A stretch of DNA of 52,509 bases from Candidatus Methylomirabilis sp. (GTDB lineage: Bacteria; Methylomirabilota; Methylomirabilia; Methylomirabilales; CSP1-5): assembly GCA_012974305.1 (NCBI GenBank), contig JAAXQN010000213.1, forward strand, positions 1-52,509, given 5' to 3'. The notes below the pieces were generated by a model. That model made no database searches, was not told the origin of the DNA, and was given only the letters and a program-made list of their open reading frames with translations. This document shows positions 1,372 through 48,672 of this stretch, in pieces; position 1 is the first letter of the stretch; every line of letters begins with the position of its first letter. Both the position numbers and the translations under genes were made by a program.

Positions 1372-2070
1372 CTACGGCCCACAGCACTTTTCCCCCTCTT
1401 TGGCTTCATCGCCGTGCTCAAGAGGCACTCCCGCTTTAGTTAATCGTTCTTCAAAAGAACCCCGCCATCCGGGTGAGAGCGCCTGGATACGCAGCGCCTT
1501 CTTGGCCCCTTCGAGATTCTTCTGATCGAAATAGAGTAAATGGCACACCTCCTGAACCGTCATGCGTTCGGGGTCAGTCTTGACTCGGGCCAGGACATCG
1601 CCCGCGCCGACCTCGCCCTCTTCCACGACCCGAAGGTAAAACCCCGGTCGGCCGCTCGCCAAGAACACCTTGGGGAATTGTGCCATTCCCATCTTGATCC
1701 CTAGCTTGAAACAGGGAACACGCGGCTGGGTCACCTCGACGAGCGCGGACCCCACGCGAAACTGATCACCAATGCAAATGTCATCGTCTAGCATTCCCTC
1801 GACGGTGAAGTTCTCTCCGAACTGGCCAAAGGTGAAATCCGCTTGCCCGAGCTCCCGCTTCCAGTAGTCGTAATTCTCGAACGAATAGGCGTAGGCTGCC
1901 TTGTAGATCCCGCCGTGGTTTTTCAAGTCCGCTTGGCCATCCCCATCCAGACTGAGTGTGCGCAGCATGACCCGGCTGGTCACTGGTTCTTTGAAAATAC
2001 CCGTCGTGGTCGTCTTATTCATATATGGAATTTCCTTGGGCAATGACACATTCACCGAGAGAAGCTTCAC
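1372..2070 (-). CDS. MOSC domain protein (YiiM-like, MOSC + 3-alpha domain)
   Basis: 232 aa with a GTG start. 'MKLLSVNVSLPKEI...GIFKEPV', 'DGQADLKNHGG' and 'QPRVPCFKLG' are MOSC hallmarks, including the conserved Cys. It is a paralog of the N-terminus of the next gene. Confidence 0.85.
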   Translation of the reverse strand: MKLLSVNVSLPKEIPYMNKTTTTGIFKEPVTSRVMLRTLSLDGDGQADLKNHGGIYKAAYAYSFENYDYWKRELGQADFTFGQFGENFTVEGMLDDDICIGDQFRVGSALVEVTQPRVPCFKLGIKMGMAQFPKVFLASGRPGFYLRVVEEGEVGAGDVLARVKTDPERMTVQEVCHLLYFDQKNLEGAKKALRIQALSPGWRGSFEERLTKAGVPLEHGDEAKEGEKCCGP

Positions 2071-2151
2071 TCCTTGTCCCCCCTAGTACTCAGTTCCTCC
2101 TCCGAACAGAAATCTCATGGGCAAACACGTTTACTTTCGCCGACGACGGCG

Positions 2152-3894
2152 TCACACCCCGACGACCACATTGCTTTTTGGCTTGGAGCAGCAGATCAGG
2201 ACCGATCCCTGAGCGGGCAGGTCAAGTGGCTCTTGAACGTACTCCACTTCACCTTCCTCGAGCGTGCATTTACAGGTATGACATATCCCAGACCGACAGC
2301 TGTAATCCGGGCTCAATCCATTTGCCTCAGCGAGGTCAAGAATGCTTTCGAATGACGGGTTCCAATTTACCTTGACCCCCGACTTGGAAAACGTCACCTC
2401 GATTTCTTCGCAGCACTCAGAGGCTGCTGCGGCACGCTTTGGTGTCGCAACCTTTGCCCTCTCTGTCAGCGCAGAGGCCGGCCCGAAAAACTCGTAATGA
2501 ATCCGGGTCTCAGGGATCTCCCAGGAAAGGAGCCCGTTGAACAGCGATTTCATGAAGGGTGTGGGGCCACACAGATAGAAATCGAAATCTGTGCTGGGTA
2601 GCAGACGTTTCACGAGTTCGATATCCACGTGTCCCTCGTCATCATAGTCGCGTCCTACGGTGTCTTCGGACAAGGGTCTGCTGTATCGAATGTGCACGTG
2701 GACGTTGCTCTTTTCTTCGGCAACGCGCCGGACATGTTCACCCAGGGCATGCTCCCGGCTGTTTCGGCTGCCGTGAATAAACCATGTCGGTCGATTCGAA
2801 CCCGCATCTACAATGGAGTTTAACATGCTAATTAAGGGCGTCATCCCAACGCCGGCACTTAAGAGAACCACGCCGGTTTCCCCATGAGAGCCGAGGAAGA
2901 ATTTACCTCTGGGGGACTTTGTTAATAGCTGTGAGCCTAGTTCCACCTGATCATGGAAGTAGTTAGAAGACGCTCCTGGGTATACGTCTGGTCGGTTAGG
3001 TGGGGCGAGTTCTCTCTTGATGGTCAGCCGGTAGTAATCCCTGGTGGGGCTGTCAGATAAGGAATACGTCCGCAGAACCGGCTTCCAATGCCCTGGGATG
3101 TCCAGCTTCAAGGGCAAAAACTGGCCTGGCAAGAAGGGTGCTAACGGCTTTCCATCCTCGGGCACGAGATAAAACGAGGTGATGGTTTCACTCTCCAGCG
3201 CTTTCCGGTTAACAATCAATGTTCGAAGTTCCTCTTGAGTCTCAGTTGCGGCCTGAGCTTTGGCCAACCGGCCTTCAAACGTGACTCGCCACCCCGGGGA
3301 AAATGCGGCAACACCAAGGGCTTTTCTGAATCCCTCCAGGTTGTCCTTGTCAAAATACATCAGCTTGTTGGCCTCGATGATCGTCATGCCGACGGGGTCA
3401 ACTCTTACTCTCTCGATCACATCGCCCGCACCAACCTCCCCCTCTTCCAGCACGCGAAAGTAAAAACCCAGCCGCCCGCTGGCGAGAATCTGACTGTAAA
3501 ATCCCTCAACATTCATTTTGATCCCTAGCTTGTAACACGGGACGCGAGGCGCCGTGACTTCGAAAAGGGCTGTTCCTATTCTGAAGATATCGCCCACATG
3601 AACATCTTGATCGAGCATACCCTCGACTGTGAGGTTTTCGCCGAACTGCCCAAATGTGAAATCCGTCCTTCCAAGTTCACGCGCCCAGTGGGCATAATTA
3701 TCGAACGAATACACATACACGGCTCTGAATTCCCCGCCGTGACCAACCAAGTCAGCCTGGCCGTCACCCTCGAGGTTGAGAGTCCTAACCTGTACCCGTC
3801 CCTGTACGGGCTCTTTAAAGATGCCCGTTCGAACCGTCTTTCCTTTAGACGTGATCTCTTTGGGAAGGGAGACATTCACAGACAAGAGCTTCAT
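2152..3894 (-). CDS. MOSC - FAD/NAD(P)-binding (FNR-like) - 2Fe-2S ferredoxin fusion oxidoreductase
   Basis: N-terminal MOSC domain ('APRVPCYKLG'), a central 'RTYSLS' flavin motif with 'GVGMTP' NAD-binding motif, and a C-terminal 'CRSGICHTCKC' plant-type ferredoxin motif. I placed the start at the internal ATG 3894, 6 nt downstream of SD GGAGGAG (3901-3907), because it matches the paralog's N-terminus. The ORF track extends to 3939. Confidence 0.85.
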   Translation of the reverse strand: MKLLSVNVSLPKEITSKGKTVRTGIFKEPVQGRVQVRTLNLEGDGQADLVGHGGEFRAVYVYSFDNYAHWARELGRTDFTFGQFGENLTVEGMLDQDVHVGDIFRIGTALFEVTAPRVPCYKLGIKMNVEGFYSQILASGRLGFYFRVLEEGEVGAGDVIERVRVDPVGMTIIEANKLMYFDKDNLEGFRKALGVAAFSPGWRVTFEGRLAKAQAATETQEELRTLIVNRKALESETITSFYLVPEDGKPLAPFLPGQFLPLKLDIPGHWKPVLRTYSLSDSPTRDYYRLTIKRELAPPNRPDVYPGASSNYFHDQVELGSQLLTKSPRGKFFLGSHGETGVVLLSAGVGMTPLISMLNSIVDAGSNRPTWFIHGSRNSREHALGEHVRRVAEEKSNVHVHIRYSRPLSEDTVGRDYDDEGHVDIELVKRLLPSTDFDFYLCGPTPFMKSLFNGLLSWEIPETRIHYEFFGPASALTERAKVATPKRAAAASECCEEIEVTFSKSGVKVNWNPSFESILDLAEANGLSPDYSCRSGICHTCKCTLEEGEVEYVQEPLDLPAQGSVLICCSKPKSNVVVGV

Positions 3895-3998
3895 TACATG
3901 CTCCTCCATTATTTCCTTTGATTCCTGCCCTGGTTCCATGTTTGCTGCGCCTGGAAGGGCCCAAGTATCCCCTACTGGGCAAGAGGTGTCAACCTTGC

Positions 3999-6757: not shown

Positions 6758-7555
6758 TCAGGACTGCTCAGCCTCGAAGAAGACCCGGGCACATTGGAAA
6801 AGCTCGTCCCAGCCCACATCCGAGACCAGCGCGTAGGTCATCTTCCCGCTTTCCCAGAGGAGAATCTGTTTCATGAGATACTCTCCGGTCAGAAAAGTTC
6901 TGCCGTCCCGCTGGATCTCTTGCAGGCCGCTGAGGGAGGCCTCGTATCTTGGGAACGCAAAGAGGGAGATGATATTGCGTCCCTTTTCGTACACGATATA
7001 GCCCGCGCGGCGACCGCGCAACTCCGTGACCCGTCCCCCCAGCAGTTGGATCCCCGAAGCGCTATAGTCAGGGACCCGAACCGAATGTCCTGTCTGCCGC
7101 TGAACCCAAAAGGCGACCTGCTCGGTATTTTTACTGGGGAGTTCGGCAGGGTTTTCCAAGGGGGCGAATTTCATGTGCTCCGACACCATTTCCGTTACCA
7201 GGGGGTGAATCCCGGGCTTGGAAACAGGCTGCGCGATGAGATACCCGAGAACCCCACCGAGGGCGAAGAAGGCAATCGAAGCGGCCAATGCCAATGACGA
7301 GACCGGCACCCGAGAGGGACGCTGCGGTTGCTCCTCCTCTGCGATCCTCGCTCTGAGACCTTCTGCGAGATGAGGTGGAACGGGTTCCCGAGCAATTTTT
7401 GTCCTGAGCTCCTCCCGGAAAGCCTGCTCTGCCTCCACCGCCTGGCGGCAGGAGGGACATGACTGAAGGTGGGCTTCCACATCCAGCATCTTGGGCGCCT
7501 CGAGCTCGCCGTCACAATAGGCTTGAAGATACGGCGCTATTTCGTGTGAGGTCAT
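6758..7555 (-). CDS. Anti-sigma factor (zf-HC2 N-terminus, single TM, periplasmic C-terminal domain)
   Basis: The 'HLQSCPSC' H-x3-C-x2-C motif lies near the N-terminus and a central TM segment follows. I placed the start at ATG 7555, which overlaps the sigma-factor stop as ATGA. The ORF track extends to 7660. Confidence 0.75.
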   Translation of the reverse strand: MTSHEIAPYLQAYCDGELEAPKMLDVEAHLQSCPSCRQAVEAEQAFREELRTKIAREPVPPHLAEGLRARIAEEEQPQRPSRVPVSSLALAASIAFFALGGVLGYLIAQPVSKPGIHPLVTEMVSEHMKFAPLENPAELPSKNTEQVAFWVQRQTGHSVRVPDYSASGIQLLGGRVTELRGRRAGYIVYEKGRNIISLFAFPRYEASLSGLQEIQRDGRTFLTGEYLMKQILLWESGKMTYALVSDVGWDELFQCARVFFEAEQS

Positions 7556-8118
7556 TCGTCCTCCTGTGGTGCTTTGTCGCCCCCCGCATACTGCTTCAGG
7601 GCGTCTCGAAGAGCCTGCCGGCCCCTGTACAACCGGGACATCACCGTCCCGATGGGACACTCACAGATCTTAGCGATCTCTCGATAGCTACAACCCTCGA
7701 TATCCGCCAGGACTACTGCCACCCGAAGCTTGGGGGAAAGCGCGTCGATGGCTCGTTCGATGTCCTCCCCCGCCAACCGGTGGATCAGATCGACTTCCGG
7801 ATTCCCCGGAAGTGAGCTGCTCGTCCCCCCTTCCCGGTACACCCGCTCTTCGTCTAAGTCCACCGTGGGGTACGAGGCTCGCCGGACACGATTCACAAAG
7901 AGACTGTGAAGGATCGCAAAGAGCCAGGCCCGACAATCGGTCCCCGACCGAAACTGGTGGAAGAAGCGGTAGGCCCGGAGAAATGTCTCCTGGAACAGGT
8001 CCTCCGCATCCGTCTTGTTTCGGATCAGCCGCAGGGCCGTACTGTATATACTTTGCATATGGACCAGGGCGGTCTCCTCAAACTCCTGCCGCCTCTGGTC
8101 CTCTTGGTCGGGTCCCAT
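7552..8118 (-). CDS. ECF (group 4) RNA polymerase sigma-70 factor
   Basis: Region 2 ('DAEDLFQETFLRAYR') and region 4 ('SYREIAKICECPIGTVMSRLYRGRQALR') are both present. The ATG at 8118 lies 6 nt after SD GGGAG. Confidence 0.9.
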   Translation of the reverse strand: MGPDQEDQRRQEFEETALVHMQSIYSTALRLIRNKTDAEDLFQETFLRAYRFFHQFRSGTDCRAWLFAILHSLFVNRVRRASYPTVDLDEERVYREGGTSSSLPGNPEVDLIHRLAGEDIERAIDALSPKLRVAVVLADIEGCSYREIAKICECPIGTVMSRLYRGRQALRDALKQYAGGDKAPQEDE

Positions 8119-8388
8119 CACCGACTCCCGGTGGAGGGGGAGAGGACCCTATTCTCTGCAAACACCTTCCGTGCCGAGAATATTCCTTTCCCCCGAGGTC
8201 GATACCCTGCCATCTTTGACGAATCTCCGCCGGCTGTCAACCGCCCAGGGCCGTCCCCGCATCAAGCCTTTCTGGCTGCAATGGGGAATATAACTCGCCA
8301 TCGCCCTGTTCATCACATATATATATGAGACTGAAGAGGCATTGGGGGATTCCGTGTCCTCCATGCCAGTGAAAAAAGGGGGACAACA

Positions 8389-9480
8389 GTGAACCTCATG
8401 AGGGGGAGCATGAAGGGATTTATCCTTGGTGCTGCATTCCTCCTGAGTCTTGCGTGGGTCCCTCATGGTCAGGCTAGTAGCCTCCCCTACCAGGGAAACC
8501 TGACCATTGATGGAGAACCGGTGATCACGGTACTCGGGAAAGATGCGATCCCGGCCATCGATCGGCCGGAGTTTCTGTCCCTCGAGGAGGCCGATCGGTA
8601 TATGCAAGACGACGAGCCAGTCTTGGGGGTCCGCCGAGGCGAGGAAGCCCGAGCCTACTCTCTCTGGCAGCTCAATCACCACGAGATTGTCAATGACCAG
8701 ATCGGGGATCTCCCCCTCGCCATTACCTGGTGACCCCTCTGCTTCTCGGGCATCGTGTATGTCCGACCCACGCATCAGGGAAAGCCGCTGACCTTCGGGG
8801 TCAGTGGGATGCTCTGGAAAGATGCGCTGGTTATGTACGACCGGGAGACCGAGACACTCTGGAGCCACCTCAATGCCAAGGCCATCCACGGCCCTCTCCA
8901 GGGGATGCAGCTCAAACCCTATCCCGCAATCCACACAACCTGGGAACAATGGAAGCAACTCCATCCCGATGGCCAGGTGTTGTCTAAGCGCTCCATTCTC
9001 GGTGGCACCGGGGTTCGGCATGACGTCTACCAGGGATACATGGCGGATCCGAATCGTATGGGGATCTTCGGGAGGCGCAATCCGGATACCGCCCTGCCCG
9101 GAAAGGAGCACGTCTTTGGCCTCACCCTGCATGAGGCGAGGGTTGCCTATCCTTTTCGGTATCTGAGCCGCTCCCCCCTCGCGCACGACACCGTGGCAAA
9201 CGAACCGATTCTGGTGGTCTTTGCAGCCACGGAGGCCACCGCAGTCGCCTTTTCCCGTCGAGTTGATGGAAAGACACTCGATTTTACCCATCTGCGCCGG
9301 ATGAACGGAGATTGGTTGATGGAAGATTCCTCGACCGGGTCCCAATGGCGGGCCGTGACGGGGGAAGCGATCGCCGGCCCATTAAGAGGGTCCCAGCTGA
9401 CTCGAGTTCCCGGCCACCAGGTGTTTTGGTTTGCCTGGAAGGGATTTTATCCGAACACGCGCATCTGGACCGGTTTATAA
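8389..9480 (+). CDS. Exported DUF3179-family protein with an in-frame UGA (candidate selenocysteine) at codon 115
   Basis: The track ORFs 8389-8733 and 8755-9480 are in the same frame and separated only by TGA 8731-8733. The joined product reads 'DAIPAIDRPEF...HEIVNDQIGDLPLAITW-U-PLCFSG...LTFGVSGMLWKDALVMYDRETETLWSH', which is the continuous DUF3179 signature with U in place of the first Cys of CPLC. The N-terminus looks like a signal peptide. Confidence 0.7.
8746..8766 (+). promoter_or_regulatory. SECIS-like hairpin downstream of UGA 8731
   Basis: UCGGGCAU-CGUGU-AUGUCCGA is an 8-bp stem (one G.U pair) with a 5-nt loop. The stem starts 12 nt after the UGA and the loop GUG lies at +22 to +24. 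Confidence 0.4.
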
Positions 9481-9613: not shown

Positions 9614-10375
9614 GTGATAGCGACGGATCACAACGAATTATCCAAAACGGAATCCGCCACTCCACGACCGACGGTACCGTCTGACACACACAAGAAGCGG
9701 CACGACTGGTCGCGGCCGGTCGTGCTTGTGGTCGCGATTCTGGCCATGCTTGTGCTGGCCAGGGTCCTGGGACTCGGGGAGCGCTTAGGCGAGCTCAGAG
9801 ACTGGATTCAAGGGTTGGGCCCGTGGGGACCTGTCGTCTTCGTATTTCTGTACGCTGCTGCGGTCGTGGCCGCCATCCCGGGCTCGGCTCTCACCATTGC
9901 GGCCGGAGCGCTCTTTGGCTCCGTCCTCGGGGTCATCCTGGTCATCAATGCCGCCACCCTGGGGGCCAGCCTTGCCTTTCTCGTCTCCCGCTACTTTGCT
10001 CGCGAAGCCATTGCCCAGCGGCTCGCTGTCAATGAGAAATTCCAAAAGCTGGATCGTCTCACGGAAGAGCATGGGGCCATCATCGTAGCCATCACCCGCC
10101 TGGTCCCCCTCTTTCCCTTCAATCTTCTCAATTACGGCTTCGGCCTCACCCGCGTCCCCTTCTGGACCTACGTGGGCTGGTCCTGGCTCTGCATGCTGCC
10201 TGGCACGATTCTCTACGTCGTAGGAGCGGATGTCTTCACCACGGGCCTGTCCGAAGGCCGGGTCCCCTGGCCCTTGGTCGGGGCCCTGGTTGTAGCCGTG
10301 CCGATCCTCACCGTCCTCGTCCGGCAGGCCCGGCGCAGGCTGAAAGAGAAGGAAGCTCAGGCAAAAGTGAACTAA
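9614..10375 (+). CDS. TVP38/TMEM64 (DedA/SNARE-associated) family membrane protein
   Basis: 253 aa. The 'VFVFLYAAAVVAAIPGSALTIAAGALFG' and 'RLVPLFPFNLLNYGFGLT' motifs are present. GTG start after SD AGGAG. Confidence 0.85.
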   Translation: MIATDHNELSKTESATPRPTVPSDTHKKRHDWSRPVVLVVAILAMLVLARVLGLGERLGELRDWIQGLGPWGPVVFVFLYAAAVVAAIPGSALTIAAGALFGSVLGVILVINAATLGASLAFLVSRYFAREAIAQRLAVNEKFQKLDRLTEEHGAIIVAITRLVPLFPFNLLNYGFGLTRVPFWTYVGWSWLCMLPGTILYVVGADVFTTGLSEGRVPWPLVGALVVAVPILTVLVRQARRRLKEKEAQAKVN

Positions 10376-11407: not shown

Positions 11408-12088
11408 ATGCACATCACGGTCATCATTCCAGCTCTGGATGAAGAGGCGGCCATCGGTGCGGTGGTGCGGGACATCTCCCGAGACCTCGTTGAGGAGATT
11501 GTCGTCGTGGATAACGGAAGCACCGACCGCACGGCAGAGGTGGCACGAGCTGCCGGCGCCAGGGTGATTCACGAGCCAATGCGTGGCTACGGTGCGGCCT
11601 GTTTGGCCGGAGCAATGGCGGCGCAGGATGCCGACATCCTCGTCTTTCTCGATGGCGATAGAAGCGATGACCCCGCTGAAATGCCCGTCGTCTTGCGACC
11701 GATTCTGGATGGCCAGGCCGACCTGGTGGTTGGATCGCGAACGACTGGCGTCACCGAGAAGGGGGCCCTCACATCCCAACAGCGGTTTGGCAACCGGCTG
11801 GTGACGAGGATGGTGTGGCTCCTCTACGGTCTCACCTTGACCGACATCGGTCCCTTCCGGGCCATCAAAGGACCAGTCCTTTGGGACCTCGGGATGGAGC
11901 ACAAGACGTATGGATGGCCTGTGGAGATGATCGTCAAGGCGGCCAAGAAGGGATATCGAGTCGTGAACGTCCCAGTCAGTTGTCGCAAGAGAATCGGCCG
12001 GTCAAAGGTGGCAGGCACGCTGAAAGGCAGCCTCCTGGCCGGCTATCATCTGCTCTCCACCACTATGCGGTATGCCTGGAGGAGGTAA
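11408..12088 (+). CDS. GT2 glycosyltransferase, polyprenyl-phosphate sugar synthase-like (DPM1/Ppm1-type)
   Basis: 226 aa. 'VIIPALDEE', 'VVVDNGSTDRT' and 'LDGDRSDDP' (the DxD region) are present, and the protein is short and soluble like GT2 enzymes of this type. Confidence 0.8.
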   Translation: MHITVIIPALDEEAAIGAVVRDISRDLVEEIVVVDNGSTDRTAEVARAAGARVIHEPMRGYGAACLAGAMAAQDADILVFLDGDRSDDPAEMPVVLRPILDGQADLVVGSRTTGVTEKGALTSQQRFGNRLVTRMVWLLYGLTLTDIGPFRAIKGPVLWDLGMEHKTYGWPVEMIVKAAKKGYRVVNVPVSCRKRIGRSKVAGTLKGSLLAGYHLLSTTMRYAWRR

Positions 12089-12092
12089 CGCA

Positions 12093-13085
12093 ATGGCATT
12101 CTCCGTCGGTATCGGTCTCACCAACGAATGTAATCTCCGTTGTCCTCATTGCTACCGGCCGGATATGGTGATTGACCGTCTCACGTTTCAGGATATCCGG
12201 CAGGTTTGCGAAAGCATTCCGATCAGATCGATGAACCTGGGGGTCGGAGAAAATGGACTCCACCCCGAATATCAGGCCATTCTCGATTATCTCTGGGACC
12301 GAGGGGTCAAGACGACGATCACCTCCAACGGCTTGAGCATTCAAGCCCTCACAGACCAGGCGGTGAAACGCTTTCACAGCGTGGAGTTCTCACTGGACTT
12401 CCCCACGGAACGGGAGCATGACGCCTTCAGGGGACAGGGGAACTGGCGAGGAGTGATAACCGCGATCGAGCGGTGTGCCGACATCGGCCTCTCGGTCACG
12501 GTGACGTCGGTCATGATGAGCATCAACTACAACAAATTGGGGGATCTTGCCAAGGTGGCTTCCTCGCTGGGCGCCAATCTCAGAGTAAACGTCTATCAAC
12601 CCGCAAAGACCGATCAGTTCACTCTGACGTACGACCAATTCTGGCAAGGCATCAAGCGGCTGCTGGGGAGTGCTCGTCTTGTGGCCACCACCGAGCCCGT
12701 CCTCGCCGCAGTGTTGGGTATCGAGGAGTTCGCCGGCCCGGCATGTGGCCGTACGACGGTCCGCGTGGCCCCTGACGGCCGCATCCTTCCCTGTACCTAC
12801 TGGCCCAACAGTCGACTGACCCTTGCCGATCTCGCCACACTCGGAGAGCAAATCGTGCAGGCGCCGGAGTTCCTCGAGGCAACGCAGCCCCCCCCAGCGT
12901 GCGACGGCTGTCCGTGTCTAGGAGGCTGTGCGGGCAGGCGAGCCTTGGTTGGTGGCCTTCATCAATCCGATCCGTACTGTCCCTTTGTGCGAAAGGATAG
13001 GATCCTTATCGACTGGGAACAGGTGCCGGGGCAAGATCTCCCCAAGGTGGGGAGTGCCTGTACGACCGTTGTCTCGGCGAGGTAG
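12093..13085 (+). CDS. Radical SAM / SPASM-domain protein
   Basis: 'NECNLRCPHCY' is a CX3CX2C motif. The C-terminal Cys cluster 'CGRTTVRVAPDGRILPC...CDGCPCLGGCAGR' matches SPASM. The ATG at 12093 lies 7 nt after SD GGAGGAGG. Confidence 0.85.
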   Translation: MAFSVGIGLTNECNLRCPHCYRPDMVIDRLTFQDIRQVCESIPIRSMNLGVGENGLHPEYQAILDYLWDRGVKTTITSNGLSIQALTDQAVKRFHSVEFSLDFPTEREHDAFRGQGNWRGVITAIERCADIGLSVTVTSVMMSINYNKLGDLAKVASSLGANLRVNVYQPAKTDQFTLTYDQFWQGIKRLLGSARLVATTEPVLAAVLGIEEFAGPACGRTTVRVAPDGRILPCTYWPNSRLTLADLATLGEQIVQAPEFLEATQPPPACDGCPCLGGCAGRRALVGGLHQSDPYCPFVRKDRILIDWEQVPGQDLPKVGSACTTVVSAR

Positions 13086-29383: not shown

Positions 29384-30019
29384 TCATTTCCTTTTGCCGT
29401 CAAAAAACTTTCTGTATTTTCCATATCCTTCTTTTTCTAAATCCTCTTTTGAAATGAAACGAAGAGCAGCAGAGTTCATGCAATACCGAAGGCCTGTTGG
29501 CGGAGGACCGTCAGGGAATAGGTGCCCTAGATGAGAATCAGCATGTTTACTTCTCAGTTCTGTCCTTACCATAAACAAGTTTCGATCTTCTTTTTCTACA
29601 ATATTTTCAGGTTCAAGTGGTTTAGTAAAACTTGGCCACCCTGTTCTAGAGTCATACTTATCAACAGAGGCGAAAAGAGGCTCTCCAGAAACTATATCGA
29701 CATAAATTCCTTCTCTCTTGTTATCCAAATACTCATTGGCATATGCCCTTTCTGTACCGTCTTCCTGAGTAACATAATACTGTAATGGAGTCAGGGTTTT
29801 TCTGAGTTGCTCTGGGCTCGGCTTTTCGAATCTCCCAGATGCAGCTTCAGAACGGCTCGTTTCTAATTTGTCTTGCGATTGTTCTCCTCCAGGTGTATTC
29901 AGTTCTTCCCCTGATTTCTTTGCTCGAAGTTTTTGTTGCCCAACAGAGTTTTCTTTACACGATGATATGAGAAGCAATAGAGGCAAGATAAATAAGAGTT
30001 TAAGTTTTTTCCCTGACAT
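29384..30019 (-). CDS. msrB: Methionine-R-sulfoxide reductase MsrB, lipoprotein form
   Basis: Signal peptide with lipobox 'LISSC'. SelR domain motifs 'TGWPSF' and '[21 protein letters not shown]' are present. The gene is markedly AT-rich. Confidence 0.85.
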
Positions 30020-48157: not shown

Positions 48158-48672
48158 ATGGGCATCGGCATTTTTCCAGCTTCCTTCTGCGTGTAAGTCC
48201 GGGGCTATAAACCATCACCCCTGCCTATAAATGGATCAGAAGTCCTGTTTGAATTCTCTTTGTAGCTATGCAGTTAGCGTGCCGATGGACGTTCGGAAAA
48301 ATCCGTTTCCGTGACAAGAGGGACGGGCTGGCCTACGGCTATCCCTCGTCGTCGGAGGGTTGTAAACGCCGATCACAACCCTACTGCTCGGGCCCCCGGA
48401 CGCTCAGCCTGGGGGGTGGGGGCGAACAGGCAAAACGCCCTACCGGATCTTGCCAGGTCCGAGAAGTCGCCTGGTCTTCTGGTATGTCGTGGATTGGCCC
48501 AAGGGAACAGGGAGTCCGTCCAGCTGGAGAAAAGCGGCTCTTTTCTGTCTCGAAGATGAGGATATTGACGCCTCGCGTATTTGGAACGAAATGTGCACTT
48601 GGCCTGGCGTGGAGCTGAACCGGAGATAGAATCATCTTCGGTGTTTGGGCTTCTGAGACGGAGGAGCATCTA

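Follow-up and report, generated by a model that had tools for sequence, protein, structure and literature searches.

Does the TGA that interrupts a DUF3179 gene in a Methylomirabilota (NC10) bacterium end translation, or is it read as selenocysteine (Sec)? The gene lies on contig JAAXQN010000213.1 (assembly GCA_012974305.1, Candidatus Methylomirabilis sp.), a stretch of 52,509 nucleotides that is referred to here as the window. The open reading frames (ORFs) 8389-8733 and 8755-9480 were found to share a frame in which TGA 8731-8733 is the sole stop before the terminal TAA, and the conservation of this codon, the coding pattern on both of its sides and a covarying hairpin just downstream indicate that it is very probably a Sec codon in an exported DUF3179 protein.

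The in-frame UGA and its conservation

The residues around the codon read ...DLPLAITW-(TGA)-PLCFSGIVYVRPTHQ..., with PLCFSGIVY directly after the TGA and then LTFGVSGMLW and MYDRETETLWSH. When the TGA is translated as Cys, the resulting protein of 363 aa gave a single alignment to the Pfam DUF3179 profile (PF11376; E=3e-88, 296.5 bits at a cut-off of 27), in which residues 51-357 occupy profile positions 1-292 of 292 across the UGA, and the two fragments scanned apart matched complementary stretches of the same profile (1-64 and 77-292). GTG 8389 is the probable start codon, with ATG 8398 and ATG 8410 as alternatives; the GTG and a ribosome-binding site (AAGGGGGA, 8376-8383) are both kept in a related NC10 locus, L001, and the gene call on a further contig, L081, starts at the counterpart of ATG 8410. 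The N-terminus resembles a signal peptide, with basic residues R5 and K9, a hydrophobic core at residues 10-24 (Kyte-Doolittle values up to 2.5) and then G-Q-A followed by S at the predicted cleavage site, and no twin-arginine motif was seen in the sequence of this region. Full-length Cys homologues have N-termini similar to this one, and residues 1-21 of a modelled homologue (see below) are disordered.

The DNA of the 80 best loci was taken from contigs sampled at one genome per species, and the codon aligned to the window TGA was read in each. In these independent assemblies the codon was TGA at 76 loci and TGT or TGC at four. The TGA loci span at least six phyla (Methylomirabilota, Rokubacteria, Chloroflexota, Acidobacteriota, Nitrospinota and Tectomicrobia), with Anaerolineae, Dehalococcoidia and Tepidiformaceae represented in the Chloroflexota, and the source records of several are titled as whole chromosomes, 2.4-4.4 Mb in size. 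Those full-length relatives that were fetched (336-434 aa, 43-46% identity) carry ...(I/V)TW-C-PLC... at the aligned position. An earlier note on this DNA had claimed that a single frame is broken by this TGA alone, that the codon replaces the first Cys of a C-P-L-C motif in a DUF3179 protein, and that the N-terminus looks like a signal peptide; the profile alignment, the Cys of the homologues, the ortholog codons and the N-terminal sequence bear all of this out, the last as a prediction.

Some Dehalococcoidia genomes contain two DUF3179 paralogues. At locus L052 a Sec-type and a Cys-type copy stand approximately 1.4 kb apart (L052:3217 and L052:4644), and two Sec-type copies each were seen on contig CBDBGE010000006.1 (L035 and L065) and on chromosome OZ253497.1 (L045 and L070).

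The division of the locus by gene callers, and Sec machinery not being seen in the window, could be taken as signs of a pseudogene or an artefact, with the TGA having arisen through nonsense mutation or through an error of sequencing or assembly. A TGA at 76 of 80 loci in several phyla cannot be accounted for in this way, and the codon is also present in L081, a separate contig of another assembly (ENA ERZ27250328) that matches the window at 99.7% identity across 19.5 kb, reaches 1,257 bp further left and, given this identity, represents essentially the same organism. The window was furthermore compared with seven relatives, taking the parts before and after the TGA separately; both parts diverge by codon position in the order third > first > second, which argues that both are translated in this frame. 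Together with the covariation of the hairpin just 3' of the codon, these results effectively refute a pseudogene or artefact, an explanation to which we assign next to no probability.

The protein databases present the gene in a divided form. A homologue search returned 5,955 relatives at E<=1e-10, and among the 120 best, from which the fragment statistics were drawn, 83 are C-terminal fragments covering 58-66% of the query. All 24 closest matches (62-94% identity) belong to these fragments, those with a source name being from NC10/Methylomirabilota, and since every fragment sequence that was fetched starts at or beside MYVRPTHQ, the division in them falls at the very point where it falls in the window. 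In L081, L082 and L085, too, the locus is divided by the gene calls. It had been predicted that automated callers would report two fragments or an antisense ORF; the former is thus widely seen, and the latter (8149-9345, 398 aa) exists and is without a Pfam family match.

Such records would also be expected if the UGA were a true stop and the gene stably split into an exported piece of 114 aa and a second one of 241 aa whose translation restarts at GTG 8755. In the window, as in many relatives, there is indeed a GTG or ATG 7 codons past the TGA, which explains why databases carry proteins of ~240 aa starting with MYVRPTHQ. However, GTG 8755 is located inside the hairpin loop without a preceding ribosome-binding site, and the 241-aa piece would have neither a signal peptide nor PLCFSGI, even though PLCFSGI, which is encoded between TGA and GTG, remains conserved in frame. 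The Cys-type homologues, moreover, are single polypeptides, and a split gene leaves the covariation of the hairpin unexplained. We consider a stably split gene very improbable.

Of 40 ordinary genes in the window, 27 end in TGA, which makes it the commonest stop there; the standard code is therefore in use, and the UGA at 8731-8733 needs local recoding. A scan of the whole window for in-frame TGA read-through yielded 88 open-frame pairs, of which none but that at 8731 looked genuine; those at 48616 and 50588 were rejected, as each resolves into separate genes.

The hairpin downstream of the UGA

A hairpin with an 8-bp stem and the loop CGUGU, at the position of a bacterial selenocysteine insertion sequence (SECIS), had been pointed out in the earlier note, and this too was borne out: the hairpin is part of the minimum-free-energy fold, it agrees with the published model of the bacterial SECIS (bSECIS), and its stem covaries in relatives. 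The hairpin was compared directly with the bSECIS limits quoted in PMC13188914 and falls within all of them. The apical loop is 5 nt (3-9 nt required), the upper stem 8 bp (4-16 bp) and the spacing from UGA to loop 20 nt (16-37 nt); the G required in the first two loop positions is found at position 2, followed by U, and the minimum free energy of the hairpin alone is -9.1 kcal/mol (<= -7.5 kcal/mol required).

When the 60 nt from each TGA were folded, a large majority of the Sec-type loci formed an equivalent hairpin, with a 7-bp stem beginning 13 nt past the UGA and a 5-nt loop of CGUGU, CGGGU, AGUGU or UGUAU. In a gap-free alignment of 78 sequences, 98.1% of the stem cells are in standard pairs, compared to 18-55% in control registers in which the 3' arm was slid by 1-3 columns. 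Compensatory change was found in four of the seven stem pairs, with 60 cells altered on both sides, and the covariation score of the stem (0.356, as against 0.106 in shuffles) was reached by none of 500 shuffled alignments. Among the covarying columns are several synonymous or near-synonymous positions, which connect the third position of a Thr codon (ACG/ACU) with the first position of an Arg codon (CGN/AGA), the first position of an Ile/Val codon with the third position of a Tyr codon (UAU/UAC), and the third position of a Gly codon with the first position of an Ala/Ser/Val codon. The target of this selection is the RNA rather than the protein.

Of the four homologues with a Cys codon, three make just 2-3 of the seven stem pairs. 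In the fourth, L009 (L009:3298-3339; a Vicinamibacterales metagenome-assembled genome (MAG) with TGT), six of the seven pairs are kept and the loop is altered, which looks like a fossil SECIS after a recent change from Sec to Cys.

Read-through need not in itself imply Sec: a near-cognate Trp or Cys tRNA, a suppressor tRNA, or Cys carried on tRNA-Sec could decode the UGA, with the hairpin being only stimulatory, and this is consistent with the Sec residue being a prediction from sequence and with the machinery not being seen in the window. Against it stand the fit of the hairpin to the SelB-type bSECIS model, including the conserved G in the loop, and the alternation of the codon with Cys codons only, which is the classic Sec/Cys pattern. 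General suppression would also be costly because TGA is the main ordinary stop. In addition, Sec use is documented for the DUF3179 family and for its host phyla; according to a 2026 review (PMC13188914), 63 selenoprotein genes are predicted in one Methylomirabilota MAG, Sec-type [NiFeSe] hydrogenases have been reported from Methylomirabilota, Acidobacteriota and Chloroflexota (PMC13582414), and Dehalococcoidia and Nitrospinota rank among the most selenoprotein-rich bacteria in BSepDB (PMC13326102). Decoding by an amino acid other than Sec thus has a very low probability in our judgement.

Some results weigh against a Sec codon or are neutral to it. The search for Sec machinery was confined to the window, and neither selA, selB nor selD was found among its 47 ORFs using Pfam, nor any tRNA, and hence no tRNA-Sec, using ARAGORN. 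The 76-nt region folds no better than shuffled sequence (z=0.35), and support for the hairpin accordingly comes from conservation and covariation, not from stability. No Rfam match was obtained for the whole window at the gathering threshold or for 8600-8900 at E<=10, a result that is uninformative for bacterial SECIS elements.

A Pfam 'SelR' match at 29384-30019 on the reverse strand was rejected as Sec machinery, as it represents MsrB. This MsrB has a 75-residue N-terminal extension, and no in-frame TGA was seen in it.

Taken together, we regard it as very likely that the UGA is recoded as Sec and that the hairpin is its SECIS. The hairpin would bring SelB and its bound Sec-tRNA(Sec) to a ribosome that has paused at the UGA, and SelB, SelA, SelD and tRNA-Sec are presumed to be present in this organism. 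The product of recoding would be a 363-residue pre-protein with the motif W-U-P-L-C, and if selenium or the machinery ran short, translation would stop and leave a 114-residue fragment. The coordinates of the gene, of its elements and of the neighbouring regulatory features are collected in Table 1.

Table 1 Features of the DUF3179 locus and its regulatory surroundings, in window coordinates. Assignments are predictions unless they name a codon.
Feature	Position	Strand	Details
DUF3179 gene, predicted selenoprotein, complete	8389..9480	+	363 codons including Sec115; stop TAA 9478-9480
Predicted signal peptide, general secretory (Sec) type	8389..8475	+	Residues 1-29, cleavage after G-Q-A; read from the sequence and a hydropathy scan
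UGA, predicted to encode Sec	8731..8733	+	Residue 115, first position of U-P-L-C
TGC codon of Cys118, second residue of UxxC	8740..8742	+	Cys in 72/76 Sec-type loci
Predicted bacterial SECIS hairpin	8746..8766	+	8-bp stem; conserved 7-bp core 8747-8753 with 8759-8765; apical loop CGUGU 8754-8758
Internal repeat 1	8611..8976	+	Residues 75-196; beta domain with U-P-L-C and conserved DRET..LWSH
Internal repeat 2	9106..9465	+	Residues 240-359; homologous to repeat 1; A-A-T-E opposite U-P-L-C
Extracytoplasmic function (ECF) sigma-70 family factor	7552..8121	-	Pfam Sigma70_r2 and Sigma70_r4_2; divergent from the DUF3179 gene
Anti-sigma factor, zf-HC2 (zinc-binding anti-sigma, ZAS)	6758..7660	-	Pfam zf-HC2; one predicted membrane span
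ECF-type promoter-like motif GGAAT-N18-GTT	8285..8310	+	79 nt upstream of the start codon; putative DUF3179 promoter; kept in L001
Second GGAAT-N18-GTT motif	8161..8186	-	Putative promoter for autoregulation; ~40 nt upstream of the ECF sigma gene; kept in L001

Protein architecture, gene neighbourhood and possible function

The protein's N-terminal half was compared to its C-terminal half by BLASTP, which revealed two repeats with 27% identity over 122 aa (E=3e-14). Judged by its sequence, DUF3179 is thus an internal tandem duplication of a beta domain of ~120 residues, with U/CxxC in the first copy only; no mention of this duplication was found in the literature examined. The structure was modelled on a Cys homologue, P0038, as a stand-in for the window protein, and the AlphaFold2 model (pLDDT 89.9, pTM 0.87) is almost all beta and consists of two halves. 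In this model CPLC is apparently located at a turn between adjacent beta strands, as placed by eye with an approximate residue count. Two histidines, His160 and His182, are nearly invariant in homologues.

Known folds were compared to this architecture. The best local Foldseek matches of the model, over 84-131 alignment columns, are Rieske ferredoxins or Rieske domains (target-normalised TM-score 0.43-0.62 at a probability of 0.77-1.0); identity as a Rieske [2Fe-2S] protein was rejected, since the CxH and CxxH ligand boxes are absent and the resemblance is local only. A thioredoxin-fold oxidoreductase was rejected likewise, the protein having DUF3179 as its only Pfam family, no NCBIfam match, an all-beta model and no thioredoxin-like protein among the Foldseek matches listed.

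The gene is divergent from those of the ECF sigma factor and its putative anti-sigma factor. The intergenic region between them is 267 bp long, and one GGAAT-N18-GTT motif faces the sigma gene and one the DUF3179 gene. Both match the consensus GGAAT-N18-19-GTT of sigmaH/sigmaR-type ECF factors (PMC10012870), a consensus of that type that comes from another phylum. In L001 (NC10) the same divergent arrangement is found in a compact form, with a CcdA gene directly adjoining. As the motifs face both units and are kept in L001, autoregulation of the sigma factor and direct control of DUF3179 are suggested; in this lineage, the DUF3179 gene is probably transcribed from an ECF-sigma promoter by the sigma factor of the divergent pair, and the pair itself suggests a role in envelope or thiol stress.

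The noncoding stretch 8122-8240 upstream of the ECF sigma gene is ~95% identical to L001 and nearly invariant; around it, the flanking proteins are ~75% identical to L001, and third codon positions differ by ~36%. The stretch is probably a promoter plus leader, with one GGAAT-N18-GTT inside. The short leader at 8122-8160 on the reverse strand showed no notable fold, a scan for sigma-70 promoters found nothing, and the gene contains two terminator-like sites, no more than expected by chance. Downstream, the DUF3179 gene is followed by a gene for a VTT/DedA membrane protein (9614-10375). ECF sigma genes were found within 3 kb in eight loci besides L001, and a tblastn search with the window neighbours located the ECF sigma gene in nine loci and VTT/DedA in six, numbers that indicate a lineage-restricted association.

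In an acidobacterial Cys-type homologue, a sigma gene, a small ORF and the DUF3179 gene are co-directional, and VTT and MOSC genes lie nearby. MOSC/YiiM genes near DUF3179 were seen both in the window (1372-3939, reverse strand) and at an acidobacterial Cys-type locus (L083:10387-12178), with protein identities of 63-72% across phyla. One of these genes is fused to FNR-like and 2Fe-2S ferredoxin domains, and the context may be shared as a mobile or a co-regulated unit.

A second putative selenoprotein was encountered on L081. A gene for an exported ResA/TlpA-like thiol:disulfide oxidoreductase (L081:768-1304, reverse strand) is split there by an in-frame TGA at L081 1092-1094, which falls in the active site (VILLEFWTYG-U-INCVHTIP) and gives it a UxxC motif. 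The gene lies ~7.6 kb upstream of the DUF3179 UGA, mostly past the left edge of the window, into which its first ~16 codons extend (positions 1-47), and it adjoins a CcdA (DsbD_TM) gene at 137-883. We regard it as a second selenoprotein candidate, and it counts in favour of Sec recoding at the DUF3179 gene.

What the DUF3179 protein does can be approached from its motif and its predicted export. The interchange of Sec and Cys at the first position of CxxC is, we infer, typical of a redox nucleophile. The signal peptide points to export through the general secretory pathway, in which case the protein would cross the membrane unfolded and fold outside the cytoplasm. Exported cofactor proteins need the twin-arginine translocation (Tat) pathway. 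Folding outside the cytoplasm hence argues against a pre-assembled Fe-S cluster. At the second position of the motif, Ala takes the place of Cys in four of the 76 Sec-type loci (L018, L025, L048 and L068), so that the resolving Cys is apparently not essential in every member. The motif reads W-U-P-L-A-H in L018 (3343), L025 (3334) and L048 (2029) and W-U-P-L-A-G in L068 (3304), all four being from Acidobacteriota/Thermoanaerobaculia MAGs. With Ala at this position in four loci, and Thr in some members according to reviews, a redox site with a single nucleophile fits better than a chelating pair. A selenol/thiol redox function is therefore favoured. That Sec115 is a redox nucleophile which forms a selenenylsulfide with Cys118 has, in our estimate, an even chance of being correct.

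A different role is suggested by metal-related genes. In L082 (NC10, GCA_003104975.1), genes for MerR and for a P-type ATPase with an HMA domain come after the split DUF3179 gene, and HMA and MerT genes are close by (L082:6892-9770 and 12040-12753), and a MerR gene is also near in L085. U-x-x-C together with His160 and His182 could on this account bind periplasmic Cu(I), Hg(II) or Zn, and the protein would serve as a chaperone or for sequestration, and not as a redox catalyst. Several metal-handling selenoprotein families with UxxC or UxxU are listed in PMC9312934 and PMC13188914, and the near-invariance of the two histidines and the local likeness to the metal-cluster-binding Rieske domains point in the same direction. 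Binding of this kind agrees less well with Ala or Thr in place of the second Cys, with the absence of metal genes from the commonest immediate flanking ORFs of the 80 loci, with the missing Rieske ligand boxes, and with export by the general secretory pathway, which would exclude a pre-assembled Fe-S cluster. We rate the binding of a soft metal such as Cu or Hg as less likely than a redox role, yet as a strong competitor to it. Upstream of the L082 gene there is also a gene for a 172-aa GRDB-family protein (L082:1175-1693), which may be a fragment of another split selenoprotein.

The redox reading can be extended to the neighbourhood. Sec-type DUF3179 might be a widespread extracytoplasmic selenoenzyme with an undescribed fold (two duplicated beta domains, only locally Rieske-like, with U-x-x-C in the first) that in NC10 forms part of an ECF-sigma-controlled module for envelope redox stress and receives electrons from CcdA and the ResA-like selenoprotein. 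If true, the module would amount to periplasmic defence or repair that depends on selenium, a pathway for which no counterpart has been characterised. We consider the full proposal unlikely. A number of observations weigh against the functional reading as a whole. GGAAT-N18-GTT occurs in the whole window at chance level (5 found, 4.5 expected), and an ECF-type motif is present upstream in only 10 of 86 related sequences, where ~4 would be expected by chance as a rough estimate. No conserved gene partner was recognized among 147 flanking ORFs of the 80 loci; the commonest neighbours are SMC_N, in 9 of 74 ORFs on the upstream side, and HAD hydrolase, in 7 of 73 on the downstream side. From these numbers, the link to the sigma factor is local to the lineage at best. 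A sequence search of the PDB for a solved structure gave chance haemoglobin matches only (E>=0.02), there is no NCBIfam model for the family, and a Foldseek search against the PDB returned nothing at E<=0.001 (best 0.016). The metal genes at L082 and L085 likewise speak for a different role.

Relation to known systems

The earlier note had presented the gene as a candidate new selenoprotein and had been aware of no account of DUF3179 as a family of selenoproteins. This claim did not stand, as 'DUF3179 domain-containing protein, pfam11376/PF11376, UxxC/T' is listed in the selenoprotein family tables of two reviews (PMC9312934, 2022; PMC13188914, 2026). In both, the credit goes to the study of Olavius algarvensis symbionts by Zhang and Gladyshev 2007 (PMC1976440), whose table uses names such as OS_HP1 and OS_HP2 instead. 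The family, the Sec position and the motif are thus already described, and the window gene is an ordinary member that is split by gene callers. No function, structure or SECIS covariation analysis for DUF3179 was seen in PMC9312934 or PMC13188914.

The existence of the selenoprotein itself is consequently not news, and the main value of the locus lies in annotation, since public gene calls and protein databases carry the gene as two fragments that a Sec-aware caller would merge. What these records divide is an exported selenoprotein that occurs commonly in Chloroflexota, Acidobacteriota, Nitrospinota and NC10 bacteria. The locus also offers a clean teaching example of a bacterial SECIS stem kept by covariation between synonymous codon positions. 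For experimenters, the two-domain model and the regulatory and genomic hints provide modest leads on function.

The proposed recoding resembles that of E. coli fdhF, where SelB acts on a hairpin that is likewise in the coding sequence just 3' of the UGA. The two are alike in their small apical loop, where a conserved G precedes a U, and in a spacing within 16-37 nt; the window hairpin has no sequence similarity to the E. coli SECIS elements, and SelB binding is in this case a prediction. The regulatory surroundings recall the SigmaH/SigmaR regulons with ZAS anti-sigma factors, known from actinobacterial thiol-oxidative stress, in the divergent genes for an ECF sigma factor and a zf-HC2 protein and in the two GGAAT-N18-GTT motifs. 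These systems belong to another phylum, however; the window anti-sigma factor is apparently membrane-anchored, and the window promoters are consensus matches.

Among exported redox proteins, the thioredoxin-fold proteins ResA, TlpA and DsbE share with the window protein the extracytoplasmic location, the U/C-x-x-C motif and the Sec/Cys interchange, and there is a CcdA gene in the DUF3179 cluster (window and L001) and a ResA-like UxxC gene upstream on L081. In contrast to them, the window protein is predicted to be all-beta, with two duplicated domains. From Rieske domains it differs in that the two positions of its Cys motif (U/C) lie in one loop and that its signal peptide has no twin-arginine motif. 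The closest counterparts are the known DUF3179 selenoproteins, with which the window protein shares the Pfam family, the Sec position, U-P-L-C, the existence of Cys homologues and a SECIS-like hairpin past the UGA; nothing essential differs, the window copy being one from a Methylomirabilota MAG.

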